A DNA stretch of 64,000 bases from an uncultured Pirellulales bacterium (GTDB lineage: Bacteria; Planctomycetota; Phycisphaerae; Sedimentisphaerales; Anaerobacaceae), in contig CAZQWM010000008.1 of assembly GCA_964597035.1 (NCBI GenBank), positions 12,679 to 76,678 on the forward strand, written 5' to 3'. The notes under the pieces are model-generated. The model had not been told where the DNA came from and made no database searches. It worked only from the letters and a program-made list of their open reading frames with translations. Positions 15,829-59,531 of the stretch are shown in pieces. How positions within the stretch are numbered: the stretch's first letter is position 1; the number at the start of each line of letters is the position of its first letter. Position numbers and translations under genes: made by a program.

Positions 15829-16242
15829 ATGGCTGATTCGAGTACGGTGACGAGCGCAAGTCAGATTCAGATGGATTATATGAATCTTCTTGTCGCACAA
15901 CTGCAGAATCAAAATCCTCTTGAACCGATGGACAATAACGAGATGGCCTCGCAGCTTGCTCAACTTTCACAACTGGGCCAGCTCGAATCTCTTGGCAGCA
16001 GCTTTAAGGAGGTAATGGCTAACACTCAGCGCAGTTATGCCAATTCACTCATCGGAAGAAATGTGACTTTCTTCGCGGAAAATGAAGTTACTGGTGAGTT
16101 GGAGAAACTAAACGGGAGCGTCGATTCGGTTTTCAATGACCCGGAAACCAGAGATTGCCTTTTGGGCGTGATCGTCGGAGAAGGTGACCTGGCCCAGGAA
16201 TACACGCTCGGACTCGCTGCCGTCGTTCTGGTCCAGAGCTGA
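15829..16242 (+). CDS. flgD: flagellar hook capping/assembly protein FlgD
   Basis: N-terminal FlgD motif DYMNLLVAQLQNQNPLEPMDNNEMASQLAQLSQL. Confidence 0.9.
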   Translation: MADSSTVTSASQIQMDYMNLLVAQLQNQNPLEPMDNNEMASQLAQLSQLGQLESLGSSFKEVMANTQRSYANSLIGRNVTFFAENEVTGELEKLNGSVDSVFNDPETRDCLLGVIVGEGDLAQEYTLGLAAVVLVQS

Positions 16243-16275
16243 AACTGAAAATTAAGATATAAGGAGAAGCCGAAA

Positions 16276-17955: not shown

Positions 17956-17964
17956 TGTTTTGGA

Positions 17965-19727: not shown

Positions 19728-19815
19728 CGCTTGGACTTTTTACGCAGGTGGGTGATGAGAAACGAAAAAGCTGAATCTTTTGTTCACATCAGTTAGTTTT
19801 GAGGAGCTTATTGTT

Positions 19816-20601: not shown

Positions 20602-20611
20602 TTAACGTGAT

Positions 20612-24352: not shown

Positions 24353-26314
24353 ATGTGGAATTTTGATATAGGATTGAGCGGACTCGATGCAGCCCGCAGA
24401 GGGCTTGACGTTGTCGGCAATAATATCGCCAACGCCGCCACCGAGGGATATCACCGCCAGAGAGTGGACCTGGTCACCGCTTTCTCGCGATGGGAAGGCG
24501 GACTGCTTATTGGTGGAGGCGTCGAGGTCGCCGGTATTACAAGGATGATAGATGAATTCCTCGAAGCTGAGATTCTCCGTCAGCAGTCTTCGCTCGGCCA
24601 GGTTTCACAGGAATCCTCAACGCTCAGCAGCGTGGAATCGGCCTTTGGAGAGCTGACGGGTAATACGGGTCTCAATGCCGCCATAGACCGGTTCTTCAAT
24701 TCCTTAAGCAGTCTTGGTGCCAATCCCGACCAGGTTGTTTACCGCAACGACGTGCTTTCCTCGGCGGATGCAATGGCCAGCCAGTTCAGAATGCTCGGCG
24801 ACTTCCTGACAAACCTCGAATCGCAAATCAGACTGCAGGCCAAAAACATCATCGGCAGGACCAACGAATTGGCTTCGCAGATTGCCAAGCTTAATGAAAA
24901 TATACAACAAGTAGAGATGGGCGGCACCGAAGCGGGCAACCTGCGTGACCAGCGAGACCAGCTCATAAGCCGGATGTCCGAGCTGATGGGGGTCCAGACG
25001 CAGCAGAGAGAATATGGCGTCGTCGATGTCGAGGCCGGCGGTATCCCAATAGTTATGGGCACAAATACACTGGAGCTTGAAGTCGGCCTTAATAATGACG
25101 GTAAGCTCGGTATTACCCCCGTCGGCGCATACAATTACCAGACTCAGATTCAGGGCGGAAAACTCGCCGGTCTTATGACTCTGCATAATACCACTCTTGC
25201 TGACATTCATAGCGACCTCGATACACTTGCTCTGGCGATAATTCAGCAGGTCAATCAGTACCACGTCGAGGGAGTCGGCTCCGACGGCTCGTTTACCGAG
25301 CTGACCGGCTGGGCGATGACAAGCCAAAACCTCAGCGATTTTGACCCGCCTATAAGCGACGGTGCTTTGTTTATTCGCGTAATCGATACCACTACCGGTG
25401 AAGTAACCCGCCATCAAATTGATATCGATGCTTCGAGTGATACATTGACCACGGTTGCATCGGCCATCTCAGCCATCACGGGGCTAAATGCAACGGTATC
25501 CGGCTCACGGTTAAGCATTCAGGCCGATTCCGGCTATGAATTTGACTTTCTTCCTGCGGTGCTGTCTGAGCCGACGGCCCAGACTTTCACCGCCGGTTCG
25601 CCGCCGAGCGTTTCAGTATCCGGTATTTATACCGGCGCCGAAAACCAGACCTTTACACTCACGGTGGTAGGCAGCGGGACCGTTGGAAATGCCCCGTTGT
25701 TGCTTGAGGTAAGAGACGAATCATTGCAGCTTGTCGATACGCTCAACATCGGCACCGGTTATGCAGCCGGTGACCTGCTTGATTTCGGCAACGGAATCAA
25801 AATAGCCGTCGGCACAGGTGACCTCAACAATGGTGACAGCTTTGAGATAGCTGCCTTTGCCAGTTCCGATACATCGGGATTACTGGCGGCGGTTGGTCTC
25901 AATACCTTTTTCTCAGGTGTAAACGCATCCAGTATGGAACTGTGCAGCGATGTCTCGGAATCGCCCGGTCGGATAGCGACCTCTCTTGGTGCGGATATGA
26001 CCGACAATGCCAACGCATTAAAATTGGCCTCGGTCAGTGAGCTGCAGATTAACGAGCTGGACTCGCTTACCGCCGGCCAGTTTTACCGCAAGCTCGTCTC
26101 CGATATCGGGCAGCAGTTGTCAATCAAGCAGATGTCGCAGGACAGCATCGAGACCCTTCTGCAGAGCTTGACGAACCAGCAAAGCGAAATCAGTGGTGTG
26201 GACATTAACGATGAAGCCGCACAGATGCTTGTCTTTGAACGGATGTTCGAGGCGATGGCCAAGTATCTAAACACCGTTCAGTCAACGATAACTACTATTA
26301 TGGAGTTGCTATAA
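24353..26314 (+). CDS. flgK: hook-associated protein 1 FlgK
   Basis: N-terminal GLSGLDAARRGLDVVGNNIANAATEGYHRQ and C-terminal SGVDINDEAAQMLVFERMFEAMAKYLNTV. Confidence 0.9.
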   Translation: MWNFDIGLSGLDAARRGLDVVGNNIANAATEGYHRQRVDLVTAFSRWEGGLLIGGGVEVAGITRMIDEFLEAEILRQQSSLGQVSQESSTLSSVESAFGELTGNTGLNAAIDRFFNSLSSLGANPDQVVYRNDVLSSADAMASQFRMLGDFLTNLESQIRLQAKNIIGRTNELASQIAKLNENIQQVEMGGTEAGNLRDQRDQLISRMSELMGVQTQQREYGVVDVEAGGIPIVMGTNTLELEVGLNNDGKLGITPVGAYNYQTQIQGGKLAGLMTLHNTTLADIHSDLDTLALAIIQQVNQYHVEGVGSDGSFTELTGWAMTSQNLSDFDPPISDGALFIRVIDTTTGEVTRHQIDIDASSDTLTTVASAISAITGLNATVSGSRLSIQADSGYEFDFLPAVLSEPTAQTFTAGSPPSVSVSGIYTGAENQTFTLTVVGSGTVGNAPLLLEVRDESLQLVDTLNIGTGYAAGDLLDFGNGIKIAVGTGDLNNGDSFEIAAFASSDTSGLLAAVGLNTFFSGVNASSMELCSDVSESPGRIATSLGADMTDNANALKLASVSELQINELDSLTAGQFYRKLVSDIGQQLSIKQMSQDSIETLLQSLTNQQSEISGVDINDEAAQMLVFERMFEAMAKYLNTVQSTITTIMELL

Positions 26315-26340: not shown

Positions 26341-27528
26341 ATGAGCGGCATACTTAACAGCATATACAACAACGTCAGCTTCGCCCTTGCACGGCATTCA
26401 GACGCCCTTACCCGGCTGCAGGAACAGGTCTCAACCGGCTCTCGGATAAATCGTCCGTCGGACGACCCGTCGGCTGCGTATCATATACTCACGCTCAATA
26501 CCGAACAGAGTTCGCTCGAAAATTATATCCAGAAGCTGTCCGACACAATGAGCACGCTTGAGGTCAGCTCGTCTGTTCTCCAGCAAATGAGTTCGGTCAT
26601 CAGCCAGGCAAGGGTTAGTGTCACCCAGATTGCCAGCGGTGTTTACGACGAAGACGGGCGCCAAAGGGCTGCCGAGGCGATTGACGATGTGCTTGAGCAA
26701 CTGGTTCAGCTCGCCAATACAAAACATAACGGTTGCTACCTCTTTGGCGGAGCAAATACCTCTCAGGCCCCGTACGTTGTCGAGCGCACTGATGGCGAAA
26801 TCACCTCCGTCAGTTATCAGGGCAGTCTGGACCAGCGCAACGTCGATGTTGCTCCCGGCGTAACGTCAGCCGCGTATTATGTGGGTGAGGACCTGTTTCG
26901 CTCCTCGCAGCGGTCCACGCCCGAATTCAGCGGCATCACCGGTGCCGCTGCCGGTACGGGAACCTCCAATGTCACCGGAGACGTCTGGCTGACGGTAACA
27001 TTCGACGGCTCGAACTATCAAATTTCAATAGACGACGGTGCCACCTTCGTGACCGTTCCCTCAGGTGGAGACGCAAATCAGCAGGTAACGGATTCCCGAA
27101 CCGGAAAGGTCCTTTACGTTGATACGACCGGGATAGACTCTACCGGCGTCGAGCTTGTTCGTGTCCCCGGGACATACGATATTTTCAGCACGCTAATCAG
27201 TATCCGCGATATACTCAGAAACGACAGGGACCTGTCGGACCAGCAGCTAAACCAGCTTCACAGCGACTCGATGACAGCACTTGAGGAAATAGGGAATCTC
27301 GTCACTCAGAAACAGGTTTCGGTGGGGGCAAAAGTAGGATTCCTCAGTCAGCTCAATGACAGTCTCGAAAGCGTAAAGTACGACGCCGAAGACGAGGTGA
27401 GCCGCCTGGAAGAAGCGGACATTGCCCAGATTGCCATAGACCTGTCGCGTCACGAATTGCTTTACGAGATGTCACTGTCGGTTGCCGGCAAGCTTATGTC
27501 CTTGTCGCTGCTTGATTTCATTGAATAA
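26341..27528 (+). CDS. flgL: hook-associated protein 3 FlgL
   Basis: Flagellin-like N-terminus (LTRLQEQVSTGSRINRPSDDPSAA) and C-terminus (RLEEADIAQIAIDLSRHELLYEMSLSVAGKLMSLSLLDF), in the position after flgK. Confidence 0.85.
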   Translation: MSGILNSIYNNVSFALARHSDALTRLQEQVSTGSRINRPSDDPSAAYHILTLNTEQSSLENYIQKLSDTMSTLEVSSSVLQQMSSVISQARVSVTQIASGVYDEDGRQRAAEAIDDVLEQLVQLANTKHNGCYLFGGANTSQAPYVVERTDGEITSVSYQGSLDQRNVDVAPGVTSAAYYVGEDLFRSSQRSTPEFSGITGAAAGTGTSNVTGDVWLTVTFDGSNYQISIDDGATFVTVPSGGDANQQVTDSRTGKVLYVDTTGIDSTGVELVRVPGTYDIFSTLISIRDILRNDRDLSDQQLNQLHSDSMTALEEIGNLVTQKQVSVGAKVGFLSQLNDSLESVKYDAEDEVSRLEEADIAQIAIDLSRHELLYEMSLSVAGKLMSLSLLDFIE

Positions 27529-27754: not shown

Positions 27755-29188
27755 ATGGAAAACACCAATAATTACTACCAGGAGGGCCTCAAGCTGGCCG
27801 AAGCCGGCCGGCACAAAGAGGCCCTGGAGTGTATGCAGTTGCACCTGAATTCTTCCCCTGACGACGCCCAGGCGATAAACGATGCCGGGGCGATTCTGCA
27901 CTGCCTTGGACGGTCCGAAGAGGCGATAGAATACTTCCGAAGGGCAAGGATTCTCGTCCCGGATTCTGCGGAGATACTCTGGAATCTCGCGGAGGCCTGC
28001 CTGGCCGTTGGAAATGCAAAACACGCCGCCGAGCTTTTCGATGATATGGCGCGCAAGGGTATTCTAAATGCCGATGTTCTCAACAGGACGGCAAACGTCT
28101 TCCTCGACCAGGGCCGCGCGGGCGATGCCATCGAAATGCTCCTTCGTTCGTTACAGGTCTCGCCCAACCAGGAGCTGCTTACGCCTATGCTGAAGGTCAT
28201 ACGAACTAAAAGGCCGAAGGTCGCGTTTTTTTGCGGCGTGAAAGGGGACGTGAAGTTCCTTTCGGACATTTACAGCTTCATCGAGCAGCGGTTCCCGGTC
28301 GAATTTTGTGAAAGCTCCGATGTCAACCGGATACGTGAGGTGATGCAGTCCAGTGATATATGCTGGTTCGAATGGTGCACCGGTATCGTTGCCGCCGCAT
28401 CGAAGCTGCCTAAGGTCTCTAAAAATATTGTTCGCCTGCACCGTTTCGAGGCCTACAGCGACTGGCCGATGAAGACAAACTGGGAGAATATCGATACGCT
28501 TATTACCGTGGGTAACTCCTTCGTAAAGGATGCTCTGTTGCGACAGGTCCCGGCTATCGAAGCTCACACCAGTCTCGTTACAATTCCCAATGGCGTAAAT
28601 CTCGAAAAGTTCAATTTTGGCGAAAAACCGCGAGGCAAAAACATCGCCTGTATCGGCTATCTGAATGTGAGAAAGAATCCGATGTTCCTGCTGCAGTGCA
28701 TGCAAAAGCTGCACTATATAGACCCGCAATACAAGCTGTTTTTCGCCGGAGTTTTCCAGGACGCGGCACTTGAGCAGTATATCCGCCATATGGTCAAAGC
28801 GCTCGACCTGTCTGACGTGGTGTTCTTCGATGGCTGGCGAGACGATGTCAGTGGCTGGCTTGCGGATAAACACTTTATAGTATCCGCCAGCATATCGGAA
28901 AGTCAGGGAATGGGTATTTTGGAGGGGATGGCCTGTGGGCTTAAGCCCGTTGTTCACAATTTCCCCGGCGCTGAGCAGATACTGCCCCCAGAGTTTCTTT
29001 TCAACATCGCCGAGGAGTTCTGCGGGCAGATTTGTTCGGATTCTTACCAGCCGCAGCGATATCGGGCGTTCGTTGAAGAAAAGTATTCGCTTAAGCAACA
29101 GCTAAGCGAAATCAACAAGCTCTTTTTGCGCTTCGGGGCCGAAATAGACGCCCGCAAATCTGCCGTAACTTGTGCTGCTGGAACGTAG
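27755..29188 (+). CDS. TPR-domain + GT-B (GT4-like) glycosyltransferase, FlmG-like architecture
   Basis: N-terminal TPRs (YYQEGLKLAEAGRHKEALECMQLHLNSSPDDAQAINDAGAILHCLGRSEEAIEYFRRA...). C-terminal GT1/GT4-type E-x7-E region (SASISESQGMGILEGMACGLKPVVHNFPGAEQIL). ATG at 27755 with GGGAG 10 nt upstream. Confidence 0.8.
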   Translation: MENTNNYYQEGLKLAEAGRHKEALECMQLHLNSSPDDAQAINDAGAILHCLGRSEEAIEYFRRARILVPDSAEILWNLAEACLAVGNAKHAAELFDDMARKGILNADVLNRTANVFLDQGRAGDAIEMLLRSLQVSPNQELLTPMLKVIRTKRPKVAFFCGVKGDVKFLSDIYSFIEQRFPVEFCESSDVNRIREVMQSSDICWFEWCTGIVAAASKLPKVSKNIVRLHRFEAYSDWPMKTNWENIDTLITVGNSFVKDALLRQVPAIEAHTSLVTIPNGVNLEKFNFGEKPRGKNIACIGYLNVRKNPMFLLQCMQKLHYIDPQYKLFFAGVFQDAALEQYIRHMVKALDLSDVVFFDGWRDDVSGWLADKHFIVSASISESQGMGILEGMACGLKPVVHNFPGAEQILPPEFLFNIAEEFCGQICSDSYQPQRYRAFVEEKYSLKQQLSEINKLFLRFGAEIDARKSAVTCAAGT

Positions 29189-29195: not shown

Positions 29196-30806
29196 ATGAG
29201 CCGGACGAGCGAAACCAAAAATGGACCGATGGTTAGTGTCCTTGTGCCGACGTTCAACAGGCCCTTGTATCTGGCACAGGCACTTGATTCCGCCGTGCGC
29301 CAGACCTATGCCAATCTGCAAATCATAGTCATAAACGACGGCGGCAGTGACGTCACAAACATAGTTGAATCGTTTAACGACCCACGAATCCTGTTCATAA
29401 ATAAAAATCAAAATTGCGGCAAGGCGGCTTCGCTCAACGTCGCCCTCGAACACGCCGGGGGAAAATACGTGGCTTATCTCGATGACGACGACATCTACTA
29501 TCCGCATCATATTGAAACGCTTGTTGACACCCTGGAGAATCATACCGACTGCGGAGTTGCTTATACCGACCTCTATAAAACATATTACAGACCTGCTCCG
29601 GACGGAAGGAGAATCGCACTGAGCAAAGTCGTCAAGGTCAGCAGAGACTTCGACCGATTCCTTATGCTGTATTACAACCACGTCCTGCACGTAAGCTGTC
29701 TTCATCGTAGGGACCTGCTCGATAAGACGGGGCCTTATAACGAGACGCTCAACGTTCTGATTGACTGGGATATGACACGTCGGCTGGCCTTTTTCTCCGA
29801 TTTCTGTCACGTTCATCAAATTACCGGCGAATACTTTCAGTCCATCGGCGAAAGTGACAGGATATCAATTCAAAAGCGAAAGGACGAAAAAGAATACATC
29901 CGCAACGTGATGACTATTCGCACGACAAGGCCGGCCAGGCCCTGGCCTATGCTCGGGGATTTATCCATAATCTGCACCGCCGACCGCCTCAATCGTCAAA
30001 CAGCCCTTACAATCGGTCTTATTTGCAGACATACTTTCTATCCCAACAAGTTGTATTTGACACTGCCGGGCGAGGATATAGCTCGCCTGAGCACCGATGT
30101 ATCGAATATCGTTACAGTGCCTGTCGACCCGGCCGCAACGCAGCTTCAGCGCATTGACAGGGCGCTTGCCGATTGCGACGCTGACTTCGTAGCCGTGGTC
30201 CCGCCGGATTTTCCAATTCGCGATATGTGGCTGGAGGATTCTCTCTACGCTCTGCTCAACACATCGAATGCTTCTGAGGCGTTTGAGCTTGAGGATTCCA
30301 CGCCTGCCTGTCGTGCGGTAGTTGCGAAAAGAGAACATCTGCAGATCGCTCGCTCCGGATACCCGAATTTACCCATTGAGCAAGGTCTTGTGGCCGCGGG
30401 CGTCGGCCTGCGTCGTCTGCGGCCTGAAGAGATTCCATTCCAGTTTGACACGCTGCTTCAACAGGCACACGAAAACGAAAAGCAGGGCGACTGGAAACAA
30501 GCCGCTAAAATCTATGAGTTCATTGCTGAACATCATCAGAATCAGTTATGGATGAAATCACAGGCTGCTGCCGCCCTGTTTAACGCCGGGGATTTTGGCA
30601 GGGCGACCGAGCTTATCTCGTGGGTAAACAGCCGGCGCCCGACCGTGGATACGCTGATGCTGGAGGCACGGCTTAGACGGCGGGAAAGAGATTTCAAATC
30701 GGCCTTGGTGCTGCTCAATAGGGCCGAAGATATATTAACCTGCCACCTGTCGCCTGAAATTATTGAAGAGCAACAGGCCGCACATACAAACAGCAAACGT
30801 AAATAG
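29196..30806 (+). CDS. GT2 glycosyltransferase with C-terminal TPR-like domain
   Basis: VSVLVPTFNRPLYLAQALDSAVRQTYANLQIIVINDGGSD...YLDDDDIYYPHH is a classic GT-A/GT2 N-terminus with a DxD motif. The C-terminal ~130 aa are TPR-like (GDWKQAAKIYEFIAEHHQN...AAALFNAGDFGRA). Confidence 0.85.
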   Translation: MSRTSETKNGPMVSVLVPTFNRPLYLAQALDSAVRQTYANLQIIVINDGGSDVTNIVESFNDPRILFINKNQNCGKAASLNVALEHAGGKYVAYLDDDDIYYPHHIETLVDTLENHTDCGVAYTDLYKTYYRPAPDGRRIALSKVVKVSRDFDRFLMLYYNHVLHVSCLHRRDLLDKTGPYNETLNVLIDWDMTRRLAFFSDFCHVHQITGEYFQSIGESDRISIQKRKDEKEYIRNVMTIRTTRPARPWPMLGDLSIICTADRLNRQTALTIGLICRHTFYPNKLYLTLPGEDIARLSTDVSNIVTVPVDPAATQLQRIDRALADCDADFVAVVPPDFPIRDMWLEDSLYALLNTSNASEAFELEDSTPACRAVVAKREHLQIARSGYPNLPIEQGLVAAGVGLRRLRPEEIPFQFDTLLQQAHENEKQGDWKQAAKIYEFIAEHHQNQLWMKSQAAAALFNAGDFGRATELISWVNSRRPTVDTLMLEARLRRRERDFKSALVLLNRAEDILTCHLSPEIIEEQQAAHTNSKRK

Positions 30807-30817: not shown

Positions 30818-31480
30818 ATGTCTGAAAAGCAAACCACCGCAACCGATACTACGCAAAACACAATTGTCGAACAGCCCAATTCGACTCAGCACTATGAGTT
30901 GTTGATGGAGCTGGCTGACTGTCTGACGAGTGTCGGTAAATATGAAGAAGCGCAGCAGCACTACGAGAAGGCGACTTCGCTCGACCCGGATGCTGCGGGA
31001 CCTTACCTCGGCCTGGGTGTTGTCGCCCTGCAGAAAAACCTGCCCGAAGACGCTGCGATTGCCTTCAAGGTTGCCTGCCGGCTTGACCCGGCCTGTGCCA
31101 GGGCCTATGCTGGCCTGGCTATTATCGCGCAACAGCGAGCGCACTACACGGAGGCCTTCCAGATGTATCTTAAATGCCTTGAGCTTGAAAACGACAATCT
31201 GACCGCGCTGCTCGGACTGTTTCAGACATCCTGCCAGATGGGTTCGTTTGAGAAGATAATCCACTACCTTCGTGCGTATCTGAAGATGCATCCCGGCGAT
31301 ACATCGGTTATGTTCGCCCTGGCTGCTTTGTATATGAAAGACGGTCGGCTTGACGAATCCCAAAACCTCCTTCGTGACGTTCTTGCACTACAGCCGGACC
31401 ACAAAGATGCGGCAAACCTGCTCGAAGAGCTTGAACGCGGACCCGCGGAGAAGGCTCAGCCCGGAGTCAACGGCAAATGA
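30818..31480 (+). CDS. TPR-repeat protein
   Basis: 220 aa of consecutive TPRs (GKYEEAQQHYEKATSLDPDAAGPYLGLGVVALQKNLPEDAAIAFKVACRLDPACARAYAGLAII...). Confidence 0.8.
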   Translation: MSEKQTTATDTTQNTIVEQPNSTQHYELLMELADCLTSVGKYEEAQQHYEKATSLDPDAAGPYLGLGVVALQKNLPEDAAIAFKVACRLDPACARAYAGLAIIAQQRAHYTEAFQMYLKCLELENDNLTALLGLFQTSCQMGSFEKIIHYLRAYLKMHPGDTSVMFALAALYMKDGRLDESQNLLRDVLALQPDHKDAANLLEELERGPAEKAQPGVNGK

Positions 31481-31794
31481 GTGTAGAAGAAGAGATGCAA
31501 CTGCTGACTCAACTTACCGAGCTGCTCGAAAAACAGCTCGACCGGGCTCGGCGGGGAAGCTTCACGGATATGGAGCGGTTGGCTGCAAAGTGCGAACCGC
31601 TTGTAGAGAAAATAACGCAAGCCCGACTGCTTGAAAGGCCGGAATACAAAGTCAGCCGGGAGCATCTTGCTGAGCTTTATCATCAGCTTCAGCTTGTGCT
31701 TTCGGCGCAAAAAAACGTTACTGCTGAAAAACTTGGCTCGATTCGCAAAAGTAAGCGCGTTGTCTCGGCCTACCGTGACAATGCGCACCGCTGA
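31477..31794 (+). CDS. small helical protein, FlgN/FliT-like chaperone candidate
   Basis: 105-aa all-helical ORF (LLTQLTELLEKQLDRARRGSFTDMERLAAKCEPLVEKI) whose ATG overlaps the TPR gene stop (ATGA). The resemblance to FlgN-type chaperones is in pattern only. Confidence 0.45.
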   Translation: MSVEEEMQLLTQLTELLEKQLDRARRGSFTDMERLAAKCEPLVEKITQARLLERPEYKVSREHLAELYHQLQLVLSAQKNVTAEKLGSIRKSKRVVSAYRDNAHR

Positions 31795-31800: not shown

Positions 31801-33198
31801 ATGCAGCATAATAAGCCCAATGTCGTTGTTGTATTAGTTGATGCCCTCAGGCCTGACCACCTCTCGTGTTATGGCTATGGCAGACCGACCGGCTCAAGGC
31901 TCAATGAATTTGCAGAACAATCGGTCCTGTTTACGTCGGCTTTTTCCGCATCATCCTGTACGGTCAGCTCCATTCCTTCTATTATCACCGGGCTTTATCC
32001 GTCGTTGCACCGCACGGGTGTGGATGGGAATCTTACGACTCTTTCCGCCGATGTCCCCACCATCGCCGAGGTGCTGAACAGGTCCGGCTATTGCACGGTG
32101 GGATTCAATACCAATCCTTTGGTTTGCGGCAAACATGGTTACAGCAGGGGGTATAGTTGCTATTACGACCTTTTTCCAGAAAAGACTAATATTAAAATAC
32201 CGGCCACCATCGAGTATTCCTGGCAGGGTGTAACTAAAAGGGAGAATGTCGAATTTACTCAGCCGTATGTCTGCAGCGGGGATTTAACAAAGCAGGTCGG
32301 CGCCTGGCTGGACGCAAATGAACGGCAGCCGTTCTTTATGTGGTTGCATTATATGGACACCCACGCGCCATATCTTCCAAGACAACCTCATTTTTCCCGG
32401 TTCTCGGCCGACAAACCCAAAGCAGAGGTTGTTCGCTTTGTCAGACAGCTCAACAGCATATACGACGTACTTCACCGGGACCAGGACCGGATAAGCCCGC
32501 TGGACAGGCAATTGATAATGGACTGTTACGATTCGGAGATAGCGTATTTCGATAGCATGTTTGGCAGGTTGTTGGATTGTTTCCAAAAGCACGGCCTGCT
32601 CGAAAATACCCTCTTGATTGTTACTGCGGACCACGGCGAGGAGTTCTGGGAGCATCAACGATGGGGACATTATGTGAGAATGTTCGATATTAACCTCCGT
32701 GTGCCCCTGATTTTGAGATACCCGCAGTTGCATTCATCGAACAAAATATTATCGCAGCAGGTTCGCAATATCGACATCTTCCCGACTATCCTGGAGATTT
32801 TAAATCTCAACAGCGATTGCCGGATGTCCGGGGTTTCGCTGTTGCCTTGTATCCGCGACGAATATATGGCGGCGCCTTTGCCTGTCGTGGCGGAAGGCGG
32901 GGGGGTGATTCAACTTTTAACGAAAACAAATACTGACCGTATGTATGCACTAAGGACGCCGGAGTGGAAGTATATAAAGAACACCACTCATCCTCAGTCG
33001 CAGCTCTATGACTTGCAAAATGACCCGCAGGAGACCAGCGACCTGTCGGCTGAACCATTCGCTGACGCCACTATGAAGGCCCTTGACCGCCGGTTAACGG
33101 ATTTGTTGAGTTCCGGTGGCGAACGAAAAAATAGTATGCCGCAGCAGGAGATGGATTCCAAGATTATCGCACAGCTCGCACAGCTTGGATACGCATAA
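31801..33198 (+). CDS. sulfatase-family / alkaline-phosphatase-superfamily enzyme (no signal peptide, no C-x-P-x-R motif seen)
   Basis: PNVVVVLVDALRPDHLSCYGY, ...SIPSIITGLYPSLH and LIVTADHGEEFWEH are hallmark segments of the sulfatase/AP fold. No N-terminal signal sequence is present. Confidence 0.85.
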   Translation: MQHNKPNVVVVLVDALRPDHLSCYGYGRPTGSRLNEFAEQSVLFTSAFSASSCTVSSIPSIITGLYPSLHRTGVDGNLTTLSADVPTIAEVLNRSGYCTVGFNTNPLVCGKHGYSRGYSCYYDLFPEKTNIKIPATIEYSWQGVTKRENVEFTQPYVCSGDLTKQVGAWLDANERQPFFMWLHYMDTHAPYLPRQPHFSRFSADKPKAEVVRFVRQLNSIYDVLHRDQDRISPLDRQLIMDCYDSEIAYFDSMFGRLLDCFQKHGLLENTLLIVTADHGEEFWEHQRWGHYVRMFDINLRVPLILRYPQLHSSNKILSQQVRNIDIFPTILEILNLNSDCRMSGVSLLPCIRDEYMAAPLPVVAEGGGVIQLLTKTNTDRMYALRTPEWKYIKNTTHPQSQLYDLQNDPQETSDLSAEPFADATMKALDRRLTDLLSSGGERKNSMPQQEMDSKIIAQLAQLGYA

Positions 33199-33285: not shown

Positions 33286-36200
33286 GTGAAAATAGCTATG
33301 CACCGAAAGATAAGAGTATTGTTCTCAATTGAGACGGCCGACCCCTGGATTCTCCGCGTTTACAAATCCTTTTACGATGGCTTGGCATCTCTGCCTTATG
33401 AGCTGTTTTGCACGGCTTGTGACGTGAAGGAACCGGCCGGACAGCTTGATGCATACAATATTATCGATTATGCAAAGCTCCCGGATTTGGCACCGGCCTT
33501 GGCTGCCTGTGGACCTGTGGGCACGCCATCCCGGCGTCTGCTCGAACTGGCGCCCGGCTTCGCGCTTTGGGATTCACCACAGCGCCTGCTCGAACGCTTC
33601 GACAGATTCAGGTCGGCTTTTCATATTGTTCAGCCGGACTTGGTCATTGTCTGGAATGGAATGGCGGACATACGACGAATGATAAGGATTTTCCTGTCGG
33701 AGCAGAGCACACCCTTTTTCTATGCCGAAAAGGGTGTGTTGCCTGACAGTTGGTATATAGACGAGGCGGGTATAAATGCCTGTTGTTCGCTTAGGCCGTC
33801 TGTGGCAAACGCCGGCATACCTGAATCTCAGCGGGACAGAGTCGAGCAGTACCTGCAGAATGTCATTAGTTCCGGCTCAAGCGCGTGGCAGCAGCCGGCC
33901 GGAATCAGTGGTGATGCTCTTAGGCGTAAACTCTCTATCGCGGTGAATTCGCCGGTTATTTTCTTCCCGGGTTGGGTGGATGAAGATACCAGCATCACTG
34001 AGCTCTCATGCTTTAAGACCGTGGCCGAGGCGGTCGGTGCCGTCGCCGATGCGATGCCCTCCGGCGCAACCTTGATTGTCAAACCGCATCCAAAATCAAA
34101 AACCGAAAGTCGTCAGCAGCTCCAGGAACTCGCACCGCAATCGCCGAACCTGCGTATCGTAACTGATGCCGATATCTGGGACCTGATTGACGTTGCAGAT
34201 TTGGTTGTATCGATAAACTCCACGGTTGCCTTCGAGTCACTGCTTGGAAAACGTAAATTGCTTCTGTTGGGGGATAATATTTTATCAAAGGTTGGTCTCG
34301 TCGAGAAAGTAAATGTCGCTGAGCTGAAAGACGCGTTAAAGGCGTCTCTTGAGGGTTCGTTCGACAACCGGGTGAATTACTCACGAGTGCTTTCGTTTGT
34401 GAAGTTTTTGCTTGATGATTACTACCTGTTTACAGGATGCAGCTCGGTCCCTCAGTCGGTCTTGTCGAGAATTGACTCGAAGGCAATAAAAGCTTCAGAC
34501 AAAACTTTCAGCGTGGACAAACTCAAAGAAATACTCTACCCGCACGAGAACACGATTTTGCCGTCCGGGCCAGTGACAGGTGAATCGTTTGACCCTGCTG
34601 TTGCTTGTTTTCGCAAGGCAGTTGACCGGTTTGCTGCCGGCAATTTCCAGCAGGCAGTGGAATTGATGGAGCAATACCGCAGGGCAATTGATTACACAAA
34701 GCTGCCACGGACGACTAAAACCCGGAACAAGTCCTCTGATGTTCAGGTCTCGGTTATTATTGTTACGTATAACAGAACTGAAGAGCTGAAAAACTGTCTC
34801 GAATCGCTCAGCAAACAGAACGAGGAGAATTTTGAAGTAGTTATTGTAGATAACGGCGGCACCAACCTCAACGAGCTTGGCAACGACTTCGACCAGTATA
34901 TCAAATGTCCGATGAACTTCAGTCTTTCGGAAGGGCGTAACATCGGCGCCTTCTTTGCTAAGGGGGCGATACTTGCCTTCCTCGACGACGACGCTGTTGT
35001 TGGGCCGGATTATATAAGTTCGATAAGGACGGCCTTTAAAACTTATGACATCTGCGGCCTTCGCGGCAGGGCGCTGCCCAAAAGCAGCCAAAATACGAAT
35101 AATGGCACGAAGGGTTACGACCACGGTCCGAATCCCTTCCCAACGGTCTGCGACCTTGAAGGGGGCTCCGCATTTTCAAGAGAGATATTCCTGTCGATTA
35201 ATGGGATGGACCCATTGCTGTTCGGCCATGAGGGCTATGACCTGACTTACAGAATCGCAAAAAACTCCGATATGCTGAATAGTATTATTTACTGGCCTTA
35301 TACCATCATTTATCATGATGCTCCATCTACCGATTCGCAGGGACAAAAAGACCAGAGATACAGTTTTAACGAGCAGTATTTGCGCTTCAAGCACAGTGAC
35401 CACATCTTCTCCCTGCGGGATGAGATTGAGAAGTGTTATCTGCCCGGCCCTCCCGGCGATGCCTGTCCCGAGCAACCAGTGGTGGGCGAAATCGAACCAC
35501 ATCGAGGGGCCGGCAACGTGACTGCACAGCCATCCCATACCGGCCCGGCTGCGGCGCCGCAGAACGATGTCCCCGTCGCACTCGTAGTTTACAACAGGCC
35601 AAAACACACGCTCGAAGTCTTGAAATCGCTCAGAGGGCACAATGTTCAAAACCTATATATATTCTGCGATGCGCCGAAGCGACCTGAGCACGAACAGGAC
35701 GTCTCGCTGGTCAGACGACTTGTTCACAGCATAAACTGGACAACGCCTGAAATAATCGAGCGTGAGCAAAACTTCGGCCTGGCGAAAAGTATAACCAGTG
35801 CGACCGACTTTGTATTCGAACGGCACGACCGCCTGATTTTACTCGAAGATGACTGTGTTCCTCAGCAGCACTTCTTCGATTTTATGTGCACCTGCCTCGA
35901 AAAATACAAGGACAATCCGAAAGTTTTCGGTGTCGCTGGTTACTCGATATCGATGCCCGATGAACTCCTCCGTGAATATCCTTACGACCTTTACTTTTGC
36001 CCGCGCATTTGCAGCTGGGGCTGGGCCACCTGGAAAAGGGCCTGGAAATATTATGACAGGGACTTGCAAAAACTCGTTGAAGAGGCCAATGAAAGAGGAA
36101 TCGACCTCGCCCAGGGCGGGAGCGAAGTCCAGGTTTTTATCGAAAAATTCTTAAGAGGTCGGCTAAACGACGTCTGGACGCTGAACTGGATTCTTACCGT

Positions 36201-39200
36201 TTATCTTAATAATGGTTATTACGCCTATCCTACAAGTTCTCACATCAAAAACGTAGGTATGGACGGCAGCGGACTGCATTGCAGAAAGACTACGAAGTAC
36301 GACAGCGTCTGCGCCGATGCAAAACCTCATCGCTATCCGGACCGGATTATACTCAACGACCAGTTTCTTGAAAGGTTCAGAAAGCACTTTGATTTCGACG
36401 AAGAACAAAGCCGAAAGGCAGCGGTTTTTCTAAGCACTATCAAAAAACATCAGACACAGCGATTAACTTCTGAAAAGCCTGCGTTATCCGCGAACAAGCC
36501 TGCAACGCCGAGCCGGTATCTCGTTTCGGCGATAGTTTCGACCTACAATTCGCAGGAGTCAATCCGCGGCTGCATCGAAAACCTCGAAAGCCAGACAATA
36601 GCCGACAAGCTTGAAATCATTGTTGTCGATAGCGGCTCTCAGCAAAACGAGCAGGCCGTCGTCGCCGAGCTACAGCAAAAATACGATAACATTAAGTATA
36701 TAAAAACCGCACAACGTGAGACCATTTATGCCGCGTGGAACAAGGCCGTCAAAGCCGCAACCGGCAAATACATCACAAATGCCAACACCGACGACAGACG
36801 TTACGAGGATGCCCTTGAAATAATGGCTAATGCCCTTGACCGGGACCCTGATGGAGTCCTGGTTTACGGCGACAACGAAATTATTGACGCCGAAACGGGT
36901 GCCGTTGTTGGCAAAACCACGAGGAGTGATTTCACCATGGCCCGTCTGCTTGACCATTGCTTCGTCGGCCCCCAGCCGATGTGGCGAAGGGAGCTCCACG
37001 ACGAGTTTGGTTACTTTGATGAATCATTCTTCTCGGCGGGCGATTACGAATTCTGGCTCAGAATCGCCCAGAAATATGAGTTTATGTATCTCACTATGGT
37101 CCTTGGCCAGTATCAGCGCAGGTCCGACAGCATCGAACACAGCAACGGCGGCTGGGTGGGCAGGTTTGAGACGGCGCTTATCAAAAAGGCCTATCAATAT
37201 GCCAGCATTAACTCTATATTCATCGGCAGTGCCGGCTTGACCGGCACGTCGCCTTTTACTGATTGGTGCGAGACGAATATCGTAAAAAGGCAAACCGCCC
37301 AAATATTAACGGGCCGGCCGGTCGAACCGGTCGAAAAGGTTGATGACAACCGAAATCCCGACACTGTGCCTTTGCTTTCCATAATTATAGCGACATTCAA
37401 CCGCACCGATGGTTTGCTCAAATGCATCGGTGCTCTCGCCGGGCAAAGCGAATCTGATTTCGAGCTGATAGTCGTAAACAACGGCTTAACCATAATCCCG
37501 CTCGCGGATAACCGCCGGTATCCTTTCGGCGTATGCTGTATGGACCTAAAAAGCAATTATGGCCCGTCGCTGGCACGAAACATCGGGGCAGGGTTTGCGA
37601 AGGCGCCTTATATTGCTTTTCTGGATGACGATGCCATAGCCGATGAGAATTTTGTCCGAAATATCCTGAGGCACTTCAACGAAACTGACATATCCGGCCT
37701 CAGGGGCAAAGCCCTCCCCGAATCAGGCGACCGCAAGCCGGACCATTACGACCTCGGTGACGAGCCGATGCCTTTTCTTGTGGACCTCGAAGGTAACTGC
37801 GCCTTCAAAAAAGATGTTTTACTTGAAGTAGGCGGTTTCGACGAATTCCTGTTCCACACCGAAGGCCAGGAGCTTTCTTACAGAATCTTCAGGCATCAAA
37901 AAGAAAGCTTAAACGCCCTGATGTATTTTCCCGATGTTGTAATTTATCACGACCCGCGGAACGTGGACGATGCCGGCGGGATTGAAAAAACCCTTCGCTC
38001 GCAGGTAATGGCTGAGATGCTTGCACGCAAGGCCCACGGCATCAGAAAATACATCAGGTTCTTCAGTAATTTCTACCCCGCCAACAGGGCTACTCTCGAG
38101 AGTAACTTTTTCCGCCTTATGGTCAACGTGTCGTTTCTCGAAAAAAATTACCCCGACCTTGCCTTGTTCTGGGCCTTGAAGGCAATTGCCATTGAGCCGG
38201 ACAACGTTCCTTGTCGCTATGCCGTCGGCCGGATGAATGTGCGACTCGGCCGGTTCGATGTCGCCGAGAGATTCCTCGAACCCTTGAGTCGGCAGTTATA
38301 TATAGCCGTTGCACAGGATAATATTTCCTCGCTCGGCGAATCCTTCAAAGATGAAAAATCAGCAACACTTTGCTACATCGATGCCGCTATGAAGCTGGCC
38401 TTCTCCTATGCACAACAGGGTAAATCACGCCAGGCCGCCGCCGCTTATTCGCAGATTCTCAACTGCTCATTCATTACGCTGTCGGACCAGCAGAAAGATT
38501 GCATAAGCAAAGAAATCGACAGATTGACCGAGTCGCCTGTTACCGTCATGCCTCAGCAACAAGATGCCAGTGTTACTGATTCCTTGTCCCAGAAGGGGGC
38601 TTACCTCGTTTCAGCCATCGTCTCAACATACAACGCGCAAGAGTTTATTCGCGGCTGTCTCGAGGACCTCGAACGTCAGACAATAGCCGACCAAACTGAA
38701 ATTATCGTTGTCAATAGCGGCTCTCAGCAAAACGATGAGCAAATCGTAAAAGAGTTCCAGAAAAGATACAGCAACATCGTCTATATCAAAACAGAGCATC
38801 GCGAGCCCTTGTACTCTGCCTGGAACCGGGCCATCAAAGCTGCCTCAGGCCGGTTTCTAACGAATGCCAACACCGATGACCGGCACCGAAAAGATGCGAT
38901 GGAGATTATGGCCGACACACTCACCGCAAATCCTGATGTTGCCTTGGTCTATGGCGACCAGATTGTTACCGACACACCGAACGGCACCTTCGAGAATCAT
39001 CACGCCGTCGAAATGACCAAAAGACCGGAATTCAGTTGGCAGCGTTTGCTCTTCGGCTGCTGTGTCGGGTCCCAGCCGATGTGGAGAAAGTCACTGCACG
39101 ACGAGTTCGCCGGTTTCGACGAGTCACTCACTTGTGCCGCCGACTGGGACTTCTGGCTTAAAGTCGCCAAAAAGCACAGCTTCAAGCACATACCTCAATT

Positions 39201-40308
39201 CCTCGGTCTTTACTATCGCAACAAGGATGGTATCGAGCACGGCCGAAAAATTCACAGCTTGTATGAGCGATATGCCGTTGGCAGACGATACGGCAACCCC
39301 TATATATCCGTTATCCCGCTCTATCAGGCACCGGACAATCCGCTTGTCTCAATTGTGATTACCGCCTACAACTCCGCCGGCTATATCGCGAGAGCAATCG
39401 AAAGCGTACTGATTCAAAATTACAGAAACTTCGAGCTGATTGTTGTCGACGACGGCTCTACTGACAACACCGCCGACATTGTTCGCAGCTTCACAAACGA
39501 GCCGATAAAATATTTCTTCAAGGAAAATGGCGGTGTCGCCTCCGCACGTAACTTCGGGCTGAAAAAATCCACCGGCTCATTCATAGTTATGCTCGACAGT
39601 GACGATATGATGACGCCTAATTACCTCGCCGAACACCTCAAAGGTTTTGTTCAGTACCCCCAGGCGGATATGGTCTACTGCGACGAATATCTCATCGACG
39701 AACAGGACCAGCCAATCCGTGTAATCCACAGGCCTCAGTACTCAGACTCGCAGGCAATCATAGCCGATATGTTCCACTCCGGCTGGCCGGTCGTGCATTT
39801 CAAAACCTGCATCAAAAGAAGTGTCTTCGACAAAATAGGACTTTACGACGAACGTCTGATTGTCGCTGAAGATTACGATATGATGAGACGTTTCATAAAA
39901 CAAGGCCTCAAGATGCATCGCCTGCCGGAGGCGCTTTACCTGCGCCGTCTGAGGCAGGAGAGTCTCTCGAAAACATATGATACCGCCAAGGCAAAGAGTC
40001 ATTTCGATGTCGTTCATAGATTTACCGAGACATTCACCCCGGAGCAATTGTTTCCCGATGTCGTTTGGAACAAGCTGCCGGCTGGCCAAAAGCCGTTACT
40101 GGCCAAATGCAAGGCCGCACTTGTCTATCTTGATATTGGCCAGAAATACCTTGGTTCTAATGCTGCTGATTATGCGGCTGTGGCCTTCGATTTGGCCTGC
40201 ACCCAACTGGATGATTGCTGCAGAATCGAGCCGGCAAATCAGAACATCATAAATCTAAGGGGAAAATGCCGGTCCATACGCGACAGGCACCTGCAGCCCG
40301 TTGCCTGA
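33286..40308 (+). CDS. 2,340-aa multi-domain glycosyltransferase (KpsS/KpsC-like + 5x GT2 + GnT-I-like + TPR-like spacer)
   Basis: One uninterrupted ORF with GTG at 33286 or ATG at 33298. Modules read from the translation are listed under the finding at 33286-40308. Approximate nt starts of the GT-A modules: 34744, 35569, 36517, 37368, 38602, 39343. Confidence 0.9.
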   Translation: MKIAMHRKIRVLFSIETADPWILRVYKSFYDGLASLPYELFCTACDVKEPAGQLDAYNIIDYAKLPDLAPALAACGPVGTPSRRLLELAPGFALWDSPQRLLERFDRFRSAFHIVQPDLVIVWNGMADIRRMIRIFLSEQSTPFFYAEKGVLPDSWYIDEAGINACCSLRPSVANAGIPESQRDRVEQYLQNVISSGSSAWQQPAGISGDALRRKLSIAVNSPVIFFPGWVDEDTSITELSCFKTVAEAVGAVADAMPSGATLIVKPHPKSKTESRQQLQELAPQSPNLRIVTDADIWDLIDVADLVVSINSTVAFESLLGKRKLLLLGDNILSKVGLVEKVNVAELKDALKASLEGSFDNRVNYSRVLSFVKFLLDDYYLFTGCSSVPQSVLSRIDSKAIKASDKTFSVDKLKEILYPHENTILPSGPVTGESFDPAVACFRKAVDRFAAGNFQQAVELMEQYRRAIDYTKLPRTTKTRNKSSDVQVSVIIVTYNRTEELKNCLESLSKQNEENFEVVIVDNGGTNLNELGNDFDQYIKCPMNFSLSEGRNIGAFFAKGAILAFLDDDAVVGPDYISSIRTAFKTYDICGLRGRALPKSSQNTNNGTKGYDHGPNPFPTVCDLEGGSAFSREIFLSINGMDPLLFGHEGYDLTYRIAKNSDMLNSIIYWPYTIIYHDAPSTDSQGQKDQRYSFNEQYLRFKHSDHIFSLRDEIEKCYLPGPPGDACPEQPVVGEIEPHRGAGNVTAQPSHTGPAAAPQNDVPVALVVYNRPKHTLEVLKSLRGHNVQNLYIFCDAPKRPEHEQDVSLVRRLVHSINWTTPEIIEREQNFGLAKSITSATDFVFERHDRLILLEDDCVPQQHFFDFMCTCLEKYKDNPKVFGVAGYSISMPDELLREYPYDLYFCPRICSWGWATWKRAWKYYDRDLQKLVEEANERGIDLAQGGSEVQVFIEKFLRGRLNDVWTLNWILTVYLNNGYYAYPTSSHIKNVGMDGSGLHCRKTTKYDSVCADAKPHRYPDRIILNDQFLERFRKHFDFDEEQSRKAAVFLSTIKKHQTQRLTSEKPALSANKPATPSRYLVSAIVSTYNSQESIRGCIENLESQTIADKLEIIVVDSGSQQNEQAVVAELQQKYDNIKYIKTAQRETIYAAWNKAVKAATGKYITNANTDDRRYEDALEIMANALDRDPDGVLVYGDNEIIDAETGAVVGKTTRSDFTMARLLDHCFVGPQPMWRRELHDEFGYFDESFFSAGDYEFWLRIAQKYEFMYLTMVLGQYQRRSDSIEHSNGGWVGRFETALIKKAYQYASINSIFIGSAGLTGTSPFTDWCETNIVKRQTAQILTGRPVEPVEKVDDNRNPDTVPLLSIIIATFNRTDGLLKCIGALAGQSESDFELIVVNNGLTIIPLADNRRYPFGVCCMDLKSNYGPSLARNIGAGFAKAPYIAFLDDDAIADENFVRNILRHFNETDISGLRGKALPESGDRKPDHYDLGDEPMPFLVDLEGNCAFKKDVLLEVGGFDEFLFHTEGQELSYRIFRHQKESLNALMYFPDVVIYHDPRNVDDAGGIEKTLRSQVMAEMLARKAHGIRKYIRFFSNFYPANRATLESNFFRLMVNVSFLEKNYPDLALFWALKAIAIEPDNVPCRYAVGRMNVRLGRFDVAERFLEPLSRQLYIAVAQDNISSLGESFKDEKSATLCYIDAAMKLAFSYAQQGKSRQAAAAYSQILNCSFITLSDQQKDCISKEIDRLTESPVTVMPQQQDASVTDSLSQKGAYLVSAIVSTYNAQEFIRGCLEDLERQTIADQTEIIVVNSGSQQNDEQIVKEFQKRYSNIVYIKTEHREPLYSAWNRAIKAASGRFLTNANTDDRHRKDAMEIMADTLTANPDVALVYGDQIVTDTPNGTFENHHAVEMTKRPEFSWQRLLFGCCVGSQPMWRKSLHDEFAGFDESLTCAADWDFWLKVAKKHSFKHIPQFLGLYYRNKDGIEHGRKIHSLYERYAVGRRYGNPYISVIPLYQAPDNPLVSIVITAYNSAGYIARAIESVLIQNYRNFELIVVDDGSTDNTADIVRSFTNEPIKYFFKENGGVASARNFGLKKSTGSFIVMLDSDDMMTPNYLAEHLKGFVQYPQADMVYCDEYLIDEQDQPIRVIHRPQYSDSQAIIADMFHSGWPVVHFKTCIKRSVFDKIGLYDERLIVAEDYDMMRRFIKQGLKMHRLPEALYLRRLRQESLSKTYDTAKAKSHFDVVHRFTETFTPEQLFPDVVWNKLPAGQKPLLAKCKAALVYLDIGQKYLGSNAADYAAVAFDLACTQLDDCCRIEPANQNIINLRGKCRSIRDRHLQPVA
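36517..37200 (+). repeat. internal paralogous GT2 module (copy 1) of the giant ORF
   Basis: YLVSAIVSTYNSQESIRGCIENLESQTIADKLEIIVVDSGSQQNE...NANTDDRR...GPQPMWRRELHDEFGYFDE. The nt string 36622-36650 recurs at 38707-38735 with one mismatch, at an offset of 2085 nt. Confidence 0.85.
38602..39290 (+). repeat. internal paralogous GT2 module (copy 2) of the giant ORF
   Basis: YLVSAIVSTYNAQEFIRGCLEDLERQTIADQTEIIVVNSGSQQND...NANTDDRH...GSQPMWRKSLHDEFAGFDE. It is collinear with copy 1 at both protein and nt level. Confidence 0.85.
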
Positions 40309-58186: not shown

Positions 58187-58999
58187 ATGTTAGTTATTAA
58201 AAACAACATTATGGCGGCAAACGCCGCTCGCCACCTGGGCCAGAGCTATGATGCCTTGGCTACGTCGGTCGAGAGGTTGTCGTCGGGCCTGCGCATCAAC
58301 ACCGCAAAGGATGATGCCGCTGGTCTCGCCGTCCGCGAATTGATGAGGGCGGACATCGCCGTGCTTCAACAGGGAGCACGAAACGCCCAGGACGGCATCA
58401 GTCTTCTGCAGACCGCAGAGGGTGGTATGCAGACCATCGACAACCTGCTTGTCCGTATGAAACAGTTGGCTGAACAGGCCGCCACCGGAACCTATACATC
58501 TGACCAGTTGTCCATTATGGACACCGAGTTTGATGAGCTTGCCGAGGAAATCGAGCGTATCGCCGGCTCCGCCAAGTTTAACGGAACCAGCCTGCTCGAC
58601 AGCGCAACAGGCACCGTTTCGGTCGTGTTTGGCACTGCGGACGATGCAATCACGGTCAATATGAAGGATATGACTAAGGAAGGACTTGGTATCGATGCGC
58701 TCAGTATCACCTCCGATGACAGTGCTATGACGGCACTTTCAACGCTTGACACCGCCATTGGCACCGCCACAACAGCTCGGGCGGAATTTGGTGCAAAGAT
58801 GAACCGCTTGATGACGTCGGTGGAAGTGCTCAACATTCAGGCCGAAAACCTGATGTCAGCCGAGTCACGTGTCTCAGACGTCGATGTAGCTACGGAAATG
58901 GCTGCGATGACAAGGAACCAGGTTCTTGCACAGGCCGGTGTCGCGATGTTGGCGCAGGCAAATATGATGCCGACTATGGCGCTGACTCTGCTGGGCTAA
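58187..58999 (+). CDS. fliC: flagellin
   Basis: N-terminal NIMAANAARHLGQSYDALATSVERLSSGLRINTAKDDAAGLAV and C-terminal ESRVSDVDVATEMAAMTRNQVLAQAGVAMLAQANMMPTMALTLL. At only 270 aa it has essentially D0/D1 with a short middle. Confidence 0.95.
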   Translation: MLVIKNNIMAANAARHLGQSYDALATSVERLSSGLRINTAKDDAAGLAVRELMRADIAVLQQGARNAQDGISLLQTAEGGMQTIDNLLVRMKQLAEQAATGTYTSDQLSIMDTEFDELAEEIERIAGSAKFNGTSLLDSATGTVSVVFGTADDAITVNMKDMTKEGLGIDALSITSDDSAMTALSTLDTAIGTATTARAEFGAKMNRLMTSVEVLNIQAENLMSAESRVSDVDVATEMAAMTRNQVLAQAGVAMLAQANMMPTMALTLLG

Positions 59000-59171: not shown

Positions 59172-59531
59172 ATGAAAGGACTCGATGTATACAAGGACCA
59201 CGCCGTTAGTACCCAGGGCAAAGGCCGTCTTATCGTTATGCTATATGAGGGTGCTATCAAGTTTATGAATCTCGCAATCGAGCAGATGCAGGCCGGAAAT
59301 CTCGACGAAAAAAGCCGATACATCTCTAGGGCACAGGACATTATCAACGAGCTTAATGCCGTCCTCGATATGGATGAAGGCGGCCAGGTCGCTACAAATC
59401 TCCGCCAGCTTTACAGCTTTATGACAAGACGCCTCTCAGAGGCAAACACTAAGCAGGACACGCAAATGGTTCGCGATGTTATAAGCTTGATGCAGGAGCT
59501 GCACCAGGGCTGGAAGGCAATAACCTGCTGA
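59172..59531 (+). CDS. fliS: flagellin-specific chaperone FliS
   Basis: GRLIVMLYEGAIKFMNLAIEQM...KSRYISRAQDIINELNAVLDMDEGGQVATNLRQLYSFMTRRLSEAN is a typical FliS. Confidence 0.92.
   Translation: MKGLDVYKDHAVSTQGKGRLIVMLYEGAIKFMNLAIEQMQAGNLDEKSRYISRAQDIINELNAVLDMDEGGQVATNLRQLYSFMTRRLSEANTKQDTQMVRDVISLMQELHQGWKAITC

Follow-up and report, generated by a model that had tools for sequence, protein, structure and literature searches.

Flagellin glycosylation, as known from other bacteria, is cytoplasmic and acts directly on the protein, and transferases bearing tetratricopeptide repeats (TPR), such as FlmG and Maf-1, recognise the flagellin. In the flagellin glycosylation islands of Pseudomonas, Aeromonas, Campylobacter and Geobacillus (PMC3958885, PMC5109656, PMC4875605), a block of glycosyltransferase (GT) and tailoring genes lies among the late flagellar genes; such islands have conserved borders, highly variable content, cytoplasmic enzymes and no exporter. 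Here we analysed 64,000 nucleotides of DNA from an uncultured Pirellulales bacterium (contig CAZQWM010000008.1, positions 12,679 to 76,678 of the forward strand; hereafter the window), in which a locus of this same layout contains one giant gene, adjoining fliD, that is predicted to encode seven GT modules. It departs from the known islands in that most of the GT activities are fused in one polypeptide of four to seven modules, that variation proceeds by the swapping of modules within the gene, and that no Maf protein was found in the island. Our preferred explanation, to which we assign a probability of roughly 70%, is that the giant represents one allele, fused and mosaic, of a flagellar glycosylation island with hypervariable content, and acts in the cytoplasm on flagellin or another flagellar export substrate.

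The TPR domain of FlmG from Caulobacter crescentus binds flagellin, and this enzyme, which adds a single pseudaminic acid, is sufficient for cytoplasmic flagellin glycosylation (PMC7591256). The window likewise contains, within a flagellar locus, a gene for a protein with an N-terminal TPR region and a C-terminal GT-B-type domain (TPR-GT4), and its flagellin is short, as in the FlmG system (about 270 amino acids, aa); unlike FlmG, the island adds eight further GT modules. WbbB, of Raoultella terrigena and Klebsiella O12, has three modules and a coiled-coil ruler, associates with the membrane, handles an undecaprenol-linked glycan and is partnered by Wzm/Wzt (PMC9587256, PMC11231755). [quoted passage not shown] The dual beta-Kdo transferase KpsC (GT107) is the best match of this N-terminal module among sequences in the PDB (6mgd) and gives its top target-normalised template-modelling (TM) score, but acts on a phosphatidylglycerol-linked Kdo linker and is encoded in capsule loci (PMC10148158). 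Flagellar glycosylation islands, their hypervariability, and GTs of two or three modules are already known. New are a single protein with as many as seven GT modules and no membrane-spanning segment, the exchange of modules within a gene, a KpsC/WbbB-type module in a flagellar locus, and the phylum; in the searchable literature, we found neither flagellar glycosylation in Planctomycetes or Sedimentisphaerales nor fused flagellar multi-GT proteins described.

The giant gene and its modules

The open reading frame (ORF) runs without interruption on the + strand from 33286, an in-frame GTG that is the mechanical ORF start, to 40308, as the initial annotation had reported (2,340 aa). Since homologues open with 'M..KIR(I/V)LFS', translation probably begins at the ATG at 33298, which gives a protein of 2,336 aa. 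The probability that 2,340 codons stay free of stops by chance is about 1e-49, and domain matches span the whole frame. The ORF is real: its protein matches at 100% a protein from a JGI metagenome, on a 70.8-kb contig, and three more full-length variants of 2,336 aa, with one to three residue differences, occur in other assemblies on contigs of 74-85 kb. As full-length variants recur in this way, the fusion is not the assembly or frameshift artefact that the initial annotation had considered. A joining of separate GT genes by mis-assembly or sequencing frameshift could draw on two related loci. In one (L008), an array of about 3,100 aa in total, of which some 650 aa match none of the module queries, is carried by two overlapping ORFs in different frames (9860-15100 and 14970-19274), which is a genuine split or else the result of a frameshift error; in the other (L018), a long-read contig, the flagellar-island locus is present and the array is fragmented. 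Against this, many other metagenomes have related sets of modules on single ORFs of 1,341-2,294 aa, and we rejected an artefactual fusion, which has a negligible probability, on the evidence of the four near-identical full-length copies from independent assemblies.

The protein was scanned piecewise with Pfam and NCBIfam, and modules are given in the numbering from the ATG (Table 1). Together with structure prediction, the matches support the seven or so GT modules initially proposed, namely M1, five GT2 modules and M3, and all the motifs that had been quoted from the translation are present. PF05159 (Capsule_synth) was found on M1, as anticipated, and PF00535 on M2, M4, M5, M7 and M8, at 70-116 bits (cutoff 23.3). 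The anticipated PF03071 was absent from M3, and a weak whole-protein match to this family falls on M8; the anticipated TPR matches were seen in M6, all of them below threshold, and those in the equivalent regions of relatives are likewise weak. The aligned DxD motifs of M2, M4, M5, M7 and M8 read DDD, TDD, DDD, TDD and SDD, respectively, and each of the six GT-A modules keeps an intact DxD or EDD together with a nearby acidic residue. Internal paralogy is evident between M2 and M5 (40% identical) and between M4 and M7 (57%); M7 is 74-80% identical to its counterparts in relatives. A short helical hairpin (residues 430-470) separates M1 from M2, and the linker between M2 and M3 is enriched in Pro, Ala, Gln and Gly. 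In a search of PDB sequences, M8 matched Listeria GmaR at E = 3e-9, which is weaker than many generic GT2 matches. We confirmed that the giant, apparently a soluble protein, has no membrane-spanning stretch, the highest 19-residue Kyte-Doolittle mean across the protein being 1.32, and no terminal amphipathic helix or anchor stood out in a hydrophobic-moment scan, a result that is suggestive only.

For M3, the initial annotation as a GT-A module like GnT-I held for the predicted fold and the EDD motif and failed for the family match, as neither Pfam nor NCBIfam returned any hit. Its AlphaFold model, built on 56 homologues, has a predicted local distance difference test score (pLDDT) of 94, and the top seven Foldseek matches are all POMGnT1 and GnT-I (E = 1.8e-12 to 2e-9), at TM scores near 0.5 and only 12-15% identity; phmmer detected POMGnT1 weakly (E = 0.012). 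The metal-binding motif of these GT13 enzymes corresponds to E100-D101-D102 of M3, which is invariant across the 56 homologues. Because the fold best matches POMGnT1 and GnT-I and the triad is invariant, M3 is, on the model, a GT13-like GT-A module that lies outside the GT13 family (PF03071) by sequence. Outside such fusions, M3-type proteins commonly occur on their own, at about 300 aa, in a large bacterial family of 'sugar transferases'.

Conserved borders and a variable slot

The window is a flagellar supercluster that holds flagellar and regulatory genes only. It opens with fliA, flhA, switch genes, fliL and two sigma-54 activators, followed by flgD, E, F, G, A, H, I, N, K and L; then come the island and fliD, on the opposite strand flhB, fliRQPO, motBBA and fliJIHGF, and lastly fliK, flagellin and fliS. 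The giant had been placed between flgL and fliD; it does lie directly upstream of fliD, and five genes separate it from flgL. Among the scanned window ORFs we found no Wzx/Wzy, ABC exporter or phosphoglycosyl transferase, in agreement with the initial annotation, and no sugar-nucleotide gene.

A whole-protein search yielded 18 relatives with M1. Among the resulting 19 M1-type proteins there are nine module architectures, in all of which M1 comes first, and 15 of the 19 end in a GT2c module of the M8 type. The middle is made up of GT2a, GT2b, GT2x, GT2y, GT2z, two GT4 types, GnT-I-like modules, methyltransferase domains and the TPR spacer, so combined that each protein has three to seven GT modules (three plus a methyltransferase domain in one member). 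The modules of the giant are 40-80% identical to their counterparts. A scan of species-representative genomes with an M1 profile gave 11 loci, nine of them in metagenome-assembled genomes of Planctomycetota. All eight close matches (L004-L011, 41-51% identity) share one gene order, flgK-flgL-TPR/GT4-GT2-TPR-(FliT-like)-[sulfatase-like, methyltransferase or radical SAM]-multi-GT-fliD, and this order recurs in at least 10 distinct relatives' loci (L002-L011 minus duplicates, plus L018). In the related loci from Planctomycetota, where protein names point to Sedimentisphaerales, flgK-flgL, a core of four genes and fliD are retained, and the slot between the core and fliD varies. The TPR-GT4 protein is 64-76% identical in the best 120 of 1,129 match clusters, several of which are named Sedimentisphaerales or Planctomycetota, and it and the other TPR/GT core genes are much more conserved than the giant.

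The closest relative (L021), whose flanking genes are 71-77% identical, shows how far the slot can diverge. Its 2,294-aa giant (14081-20965) reads GT4-unknown-GT9-GT2b-GT2a-TPR-GT2b-GT2c, where 'unknown' denotes 350 aa without a Pfam match, and only its last two modules reach the identity of the flanks to the window protein (80% and 76%). Counting this locus, at least 10 module architectures, that of the giant included, occupy the slot. In another relative the slot holds dTDP-sugar genes, methyltransferases and separate GTs. One set of relatives shares the M1-GT2a-GnT-I-like block at the 5' end of the giant gene, and another set the block at its 3' end; the gene is therefore, as judged by sequence comparison, a mosaic. 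The two members of the first set whose loci were read (L005 and L008) also carry the upstream sulfatase-like gene, which was seen only where the giant has the GnT-I-like module (the window, L005 and L008) and is missing from L021.

Every fused relative with a readable neighbourhood lies in a flagellar locus, including the giant with a different N-terminal block. The flagellar linkage of orthologues that had been proposed as a check was thus observed in all of these, with a domain order that varies among them. As a separate observation, a 2,415-aa protein from another metagenome, on an 11.7-kb contig without flagellar genes (L020, 4175-11422), starts with a domain distantly like M1 and continues with many GT2 modules; from this contig, giants with an N-terminal KpsC-like module and multiple GTs may also exist outside flagellar loci.

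Table 1. Coordinates in the window of the giant gene, its modules, the island genes and selected flagellar genes.
Feature	Position	Strand	Remarks
Giant multi-glycosyltransferase gene	33298..40308	+	2,336 aa from ATG; intact in four assemblies
M1, KpsC/WbbB-like, GT-B-type (PF05159)	33298..34587	+	residues 1-430; 46.8 bits vs cutoff 20
M2, GT2 type 'a', DDD motif	34708..35457	+	residues 471-720; PF00535
M3, GT-A with GnT-I/POMGnT1-like fold, invariant E-D-D	35548..36417	+	residues 751-1040; structure prediction
M4, GT2 type 'b', TDD motif	36493..37197	+	residues 1066-1300; PF00535
M5, GT2 type 'a', DDD motif	37348..38067	+	residues 1351-1590; PF00535
M6, helical TPR-like spacer	38098..38517	+	residues 1601-1740; matches all below Pfam cutoffs
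M7, GT2 type 'b', TDD motif	38578..39312	+	residues 1761-2005; PF00535
M8, GT2 type 'c', SDD motif, conserved helical C-terminal extension	39328..40305	+	residues 2011-2336; PF00535
flgK	24353..26314	+	upstream border of island, with flgL
flgL	26341..27528	+	upstream border of island, with flgK
TPR + GT4 (Glycos_transf_1) protein, FlmG-like domain layout	27755..29188	+	conserved core gene
GT2 protein with TPR-like C-terminal tail (GT2-TPR)	29229..30806	+	conserved core gene
220-aa all-TPR protein	30818..31480	+	conserved core gene
105-aa FliT-like helical protein	31477..31794	+	weak PF05400 match; conserved core gene
Sulfatase-family protein	31801..33198	+	relatives: methyltransferases or B12-radical SAM enzyme at that position
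fliD, 780 aa	40467..42809	+	downstream border of island
Flagellin, 270 aa, Ser/Thr-rich residues 91-215	58187..58999	+	candidate acceptor
fliS	59172..59531	+	downstream of flagellin

Against PDB sequences, the TPR-GT4 and GT2-TPR neighbours gave generic TPR and GT2 matches only. The sulfatase-fold protein has no signal peptide and no C/S-x-P-x-R formylglycine motif, reading SSCTVSS, and may be a tailoring enzyme for phospho- or sulfo-groups. The 105-aa FliT-like protein could confer specificity as an adaptor, in the manner of GlfM, a four-helix-bundle protein, instead of or besides being a FliD chaperone. Elsewhere in the window, the flagellin is minimal (D0/D1 only), and FliD is unusually long and has a Flagellin_IN motif. 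A 343-aa ORF between flgE and flgF (17965-18996) has no Pfam or NCBIfam match, and L021 has a 353-aa counterpart in the same place. TPR proteins of 970 and 320 aa are flanked by two sigma-54 activator genes (8145-15265), two MotB-like genes stand side by side (46599-48025), and a 556-aa ORF without a family match, which may encode an anti-sigma factor, overlaps the end of a gene for an extracytoplasmic function (ECF) sigma factor (61769-63978).

The M1 module and the weighing of explanations

The assignment of the N-terminal module to the KpsS/KpsC type was upheld, in that its Pfam family and its aligned Asp nucleophile and HP motif, and probably its predicted fold, resemble those of the retaining beta-Kdo transferases (GT99/GT107) KpsC and WbbB, which depend on the cytidine monophosphate (CMP) sugar CMP-Kdo. 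The AlphaFold model of the first 470 residues (pLDDT 85) superimposed on KpsC at a TM of 0.62-0.65, highest when target-normalised, and on the beta-Kdo domain of WbbB at 0.44-0.51; UDP-GlcNAc 2-epimerases/GT-B epimerases reach similar E-values. A profile from 16 M1 modules of the family matches KpsC (E = 4e-7) and WbbB, the match to KpsC being limited to the C-terminal subdomain and the identity in the structural alignment being about 13%. In the profile alignments, Q-V-D-E-D of the family falls on Q228-V-E-D-D232 of WbbB, and K-P-H-P on the HP motifs of both KpsC and WbbB; KPHPK (262-266) does not vary across the family, and PGQV(D/E)xD is present in 15 of the 16 modules. Of the corresponding residues in WbbB and KpsC, the Asp acts as covalent nucleophile, the Gln binds the carboxylate of Kdo, and the His gives a proton to the phosphate of CMP. 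Because the QxxxD and HP motifs align with those of KpsC and WbbB, the M1 family bears what appears from its sequence to be the signature of retaining transferases dependent on CMP-ulosonic acids.

Several observations weigh against a flagellar glycosylation island. In the giant studied here, and in this copy only, Trp226 (TGG, 33973-33975) replaces the Gln of the QxxxD motif, which reads PGWVDED, and the Q228A mutant of WbbB, altered at the equivalent Gln, is severely compromised. The two closest unfused M1 relatives with informative neighbourhoods adjoin Wzm/Wzt with a Wzt_C carbohydrate-binding domain, and the characterised relatives of M1 act on lipid-linked glycans. All relatives found are metagenome-derived, and the likeness of TPR-GT4 to FlmG is one of domain layout only. 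A sigma-28-type pattern, TAAA-N13-17-CCGATA, had no match, and generic promoter and terminator scans were at chance. Finally, the flagellin gene lies 18 kb from the giant. The acceptor could, in place of flagellin, be FliD, FlgK, FlgL or the hook; FliD itself could be a glycosylation target.

With the motif Gln replaced by Trp, ulosonic-acid transfer by M1 is doubtful in this copy. A second nearly invariant M1 residue is also altered here alone (Arg202 to Gly), and both Trp226 and Gly202 are fixed in the four full-length variants (4/4); Asp230 and His264-Pro265 are retained. Either the donor sugar may have changed, or M1 may be impaired or inactive. These substitutions, the severe defect of WbbB Q228A and the M2/M5 and M4/M7 paralogy would suit a partly degenerate scaffold, in which only some modules are active, the rest (the Trp226-bearing M1 or the GT2 duplicates, for instance) serve as spacers or as domains that bind carbohydrate or protein, and the glycan has fewer than seven linkages. 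We consider this unlikely, and it would in any case be compatible with an island role: the metal-binding motifs and their nearby acidic residues are kept in all six GT-A modules, M1 still has its nucleophile and HP motif, and all modules are 40-80% identical in relatives.

When 1.84 billion representative proteins were searched with a profile, M1-like domains proved to be mostly stand-alone, at 410-550 aa. The unfused loci with Wzm/Wzt also carry sulfotransferase, methyltransferase or radical SAM genes, and a Wzm/Wzt setting is where chain terminators such as the Kdo module of WbbB act (PMC11231755). The occurrence of unfused M1 relatives in such loci supports, by analogy, a capping role for M1, and it also keeps alive a polysaccharide reading, although no transporter lies near the fused members. 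The contrary case, raised early, of orthologues that consistently sit in capsule or O-antigen loci with exporters is touched in part, by the unfused relatives of the M1 domain and not by the fused orthologues. On the polysaccharide reading, the giant would be a polymerase-terminator of the WbbB type that builds a lipid-linked O-antigen, capsule or sheath-like polysaccharide at the inner membrane face; capping of the chain would fall to M1 and its export to an ABC transporter whose genes lie elsewhere, and the flagellar linkage would reflect co-regulation and not a flagellar substrate. The PF05159 membership of M1 and its alignment with KpsC and WbbB at QxxxD and HP fit this, as does the order of WbbB itself, in which the beta-Kdo terminator stands at the N-terminus and the GT modules come after it on one chain (PMC11231755), and a repeat unit could go with the duplication of the GT2a/GT2b pairs. 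However, no Wzm/Wzt, phosphoglycosyl transferase or WaaL-type gene was found in the window or in the neighbourhoods of about 20 kb of ten related loci, neither a membrane-spanning segment nor a terminal amphipathic anchor was found in the giant, no long coiled-coil ruler is seen in the modelled first 470 residues, where just the short hairpin comes after M1, and the position among late flagellar genes is invariant. We regard such a polymerase as quite improbable.

For the flagellar glycosylation island speak the seven GT modules, the intact DxD/EDD motifs, the lack of a hydrophobic segment, the FlmG-like layout of TPR-GT4, the recurring gene order and a window that contains a flagellar supercluster and no genes for exporting lipid-linked glycans. 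The slot is hypervariable, as in known flagellin glycosylation islands, and the flagellin, short and Ser/Thr-rich centrally, is the candidate acceptor.

A proposed route and its meaning

The island is favoured because its TPR enzymes fit the part of initiators, the giant that of an extender, and the sulfatase-fold protein or the methyltransferases that of tailoring enzymes. The acceptor, donors, order of action and glycan that we infer for the giant are as follows. In the cytoplasm, TPR-GT4 and GT2-TPR would bind flagellin in its unfolded state, or some other axial export substrate, and place the first sugar or sugars on Ser/Thr, perhaps with the 220-aa TPR and FliT-like proteins as adaptors for the initiating enzymes; the conserved GT/TPR genes between flgL and the giant are better candidates than the giant for this protein-recognising step. 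The giant would then extend the primer from nucleotide sugars, each module forming one type of linkage, and the sulfatase-fold enzyme, or methyltransferases in relatives, would tailor the glycan before the flagellar type III apparatus exports the glycosylated protein. Across the wider family, an ulosonic acid would be transferred from a CMP-sugar by the KpsC/WbbB-like module, in the simplest case to cap the end of the chain, as WbbB does; in the present copy, that step has possibly been altered or lost.

A bolder version, which we hold only tentatively and think rather unlikely, would be a recombining 'glycan assembly line', in which each linkage on a flagellar protein is the work of one module, the glycan is specified by which modules are present (perhaps also by their order), and cassette exchange within the gene diversifies closely related strains. 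If true, it would be a carbohydrate counterpart of the modular logic of polyketide synthases and non-ribosomal peptide synthetases (PKS/NRPS) and could be re-programmed.

Should the giant belong to a flagellar glycosylation island, flagellar glycosylation would extend to Planctomycetota, with a whole glycan pathway condensed in a single soluble polypeptide that has as many as seven transferase modules. A module of the WbbB/KpsC type, otherwise tied to lipid-linked polysaccharides, would have been recruited to protein glycosylation. The natural architectures, with their conserved termini and exchangeable middles, would amount to a ready experiment on how a glycan is handed from site to site in multi-module GTs, and the system would be a possible chassis for cytoplasmic protein glyco-engineering. 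For the organisms themselves, glycan diversity at the level of strains would arise from the swapping of modules inside a single gene.

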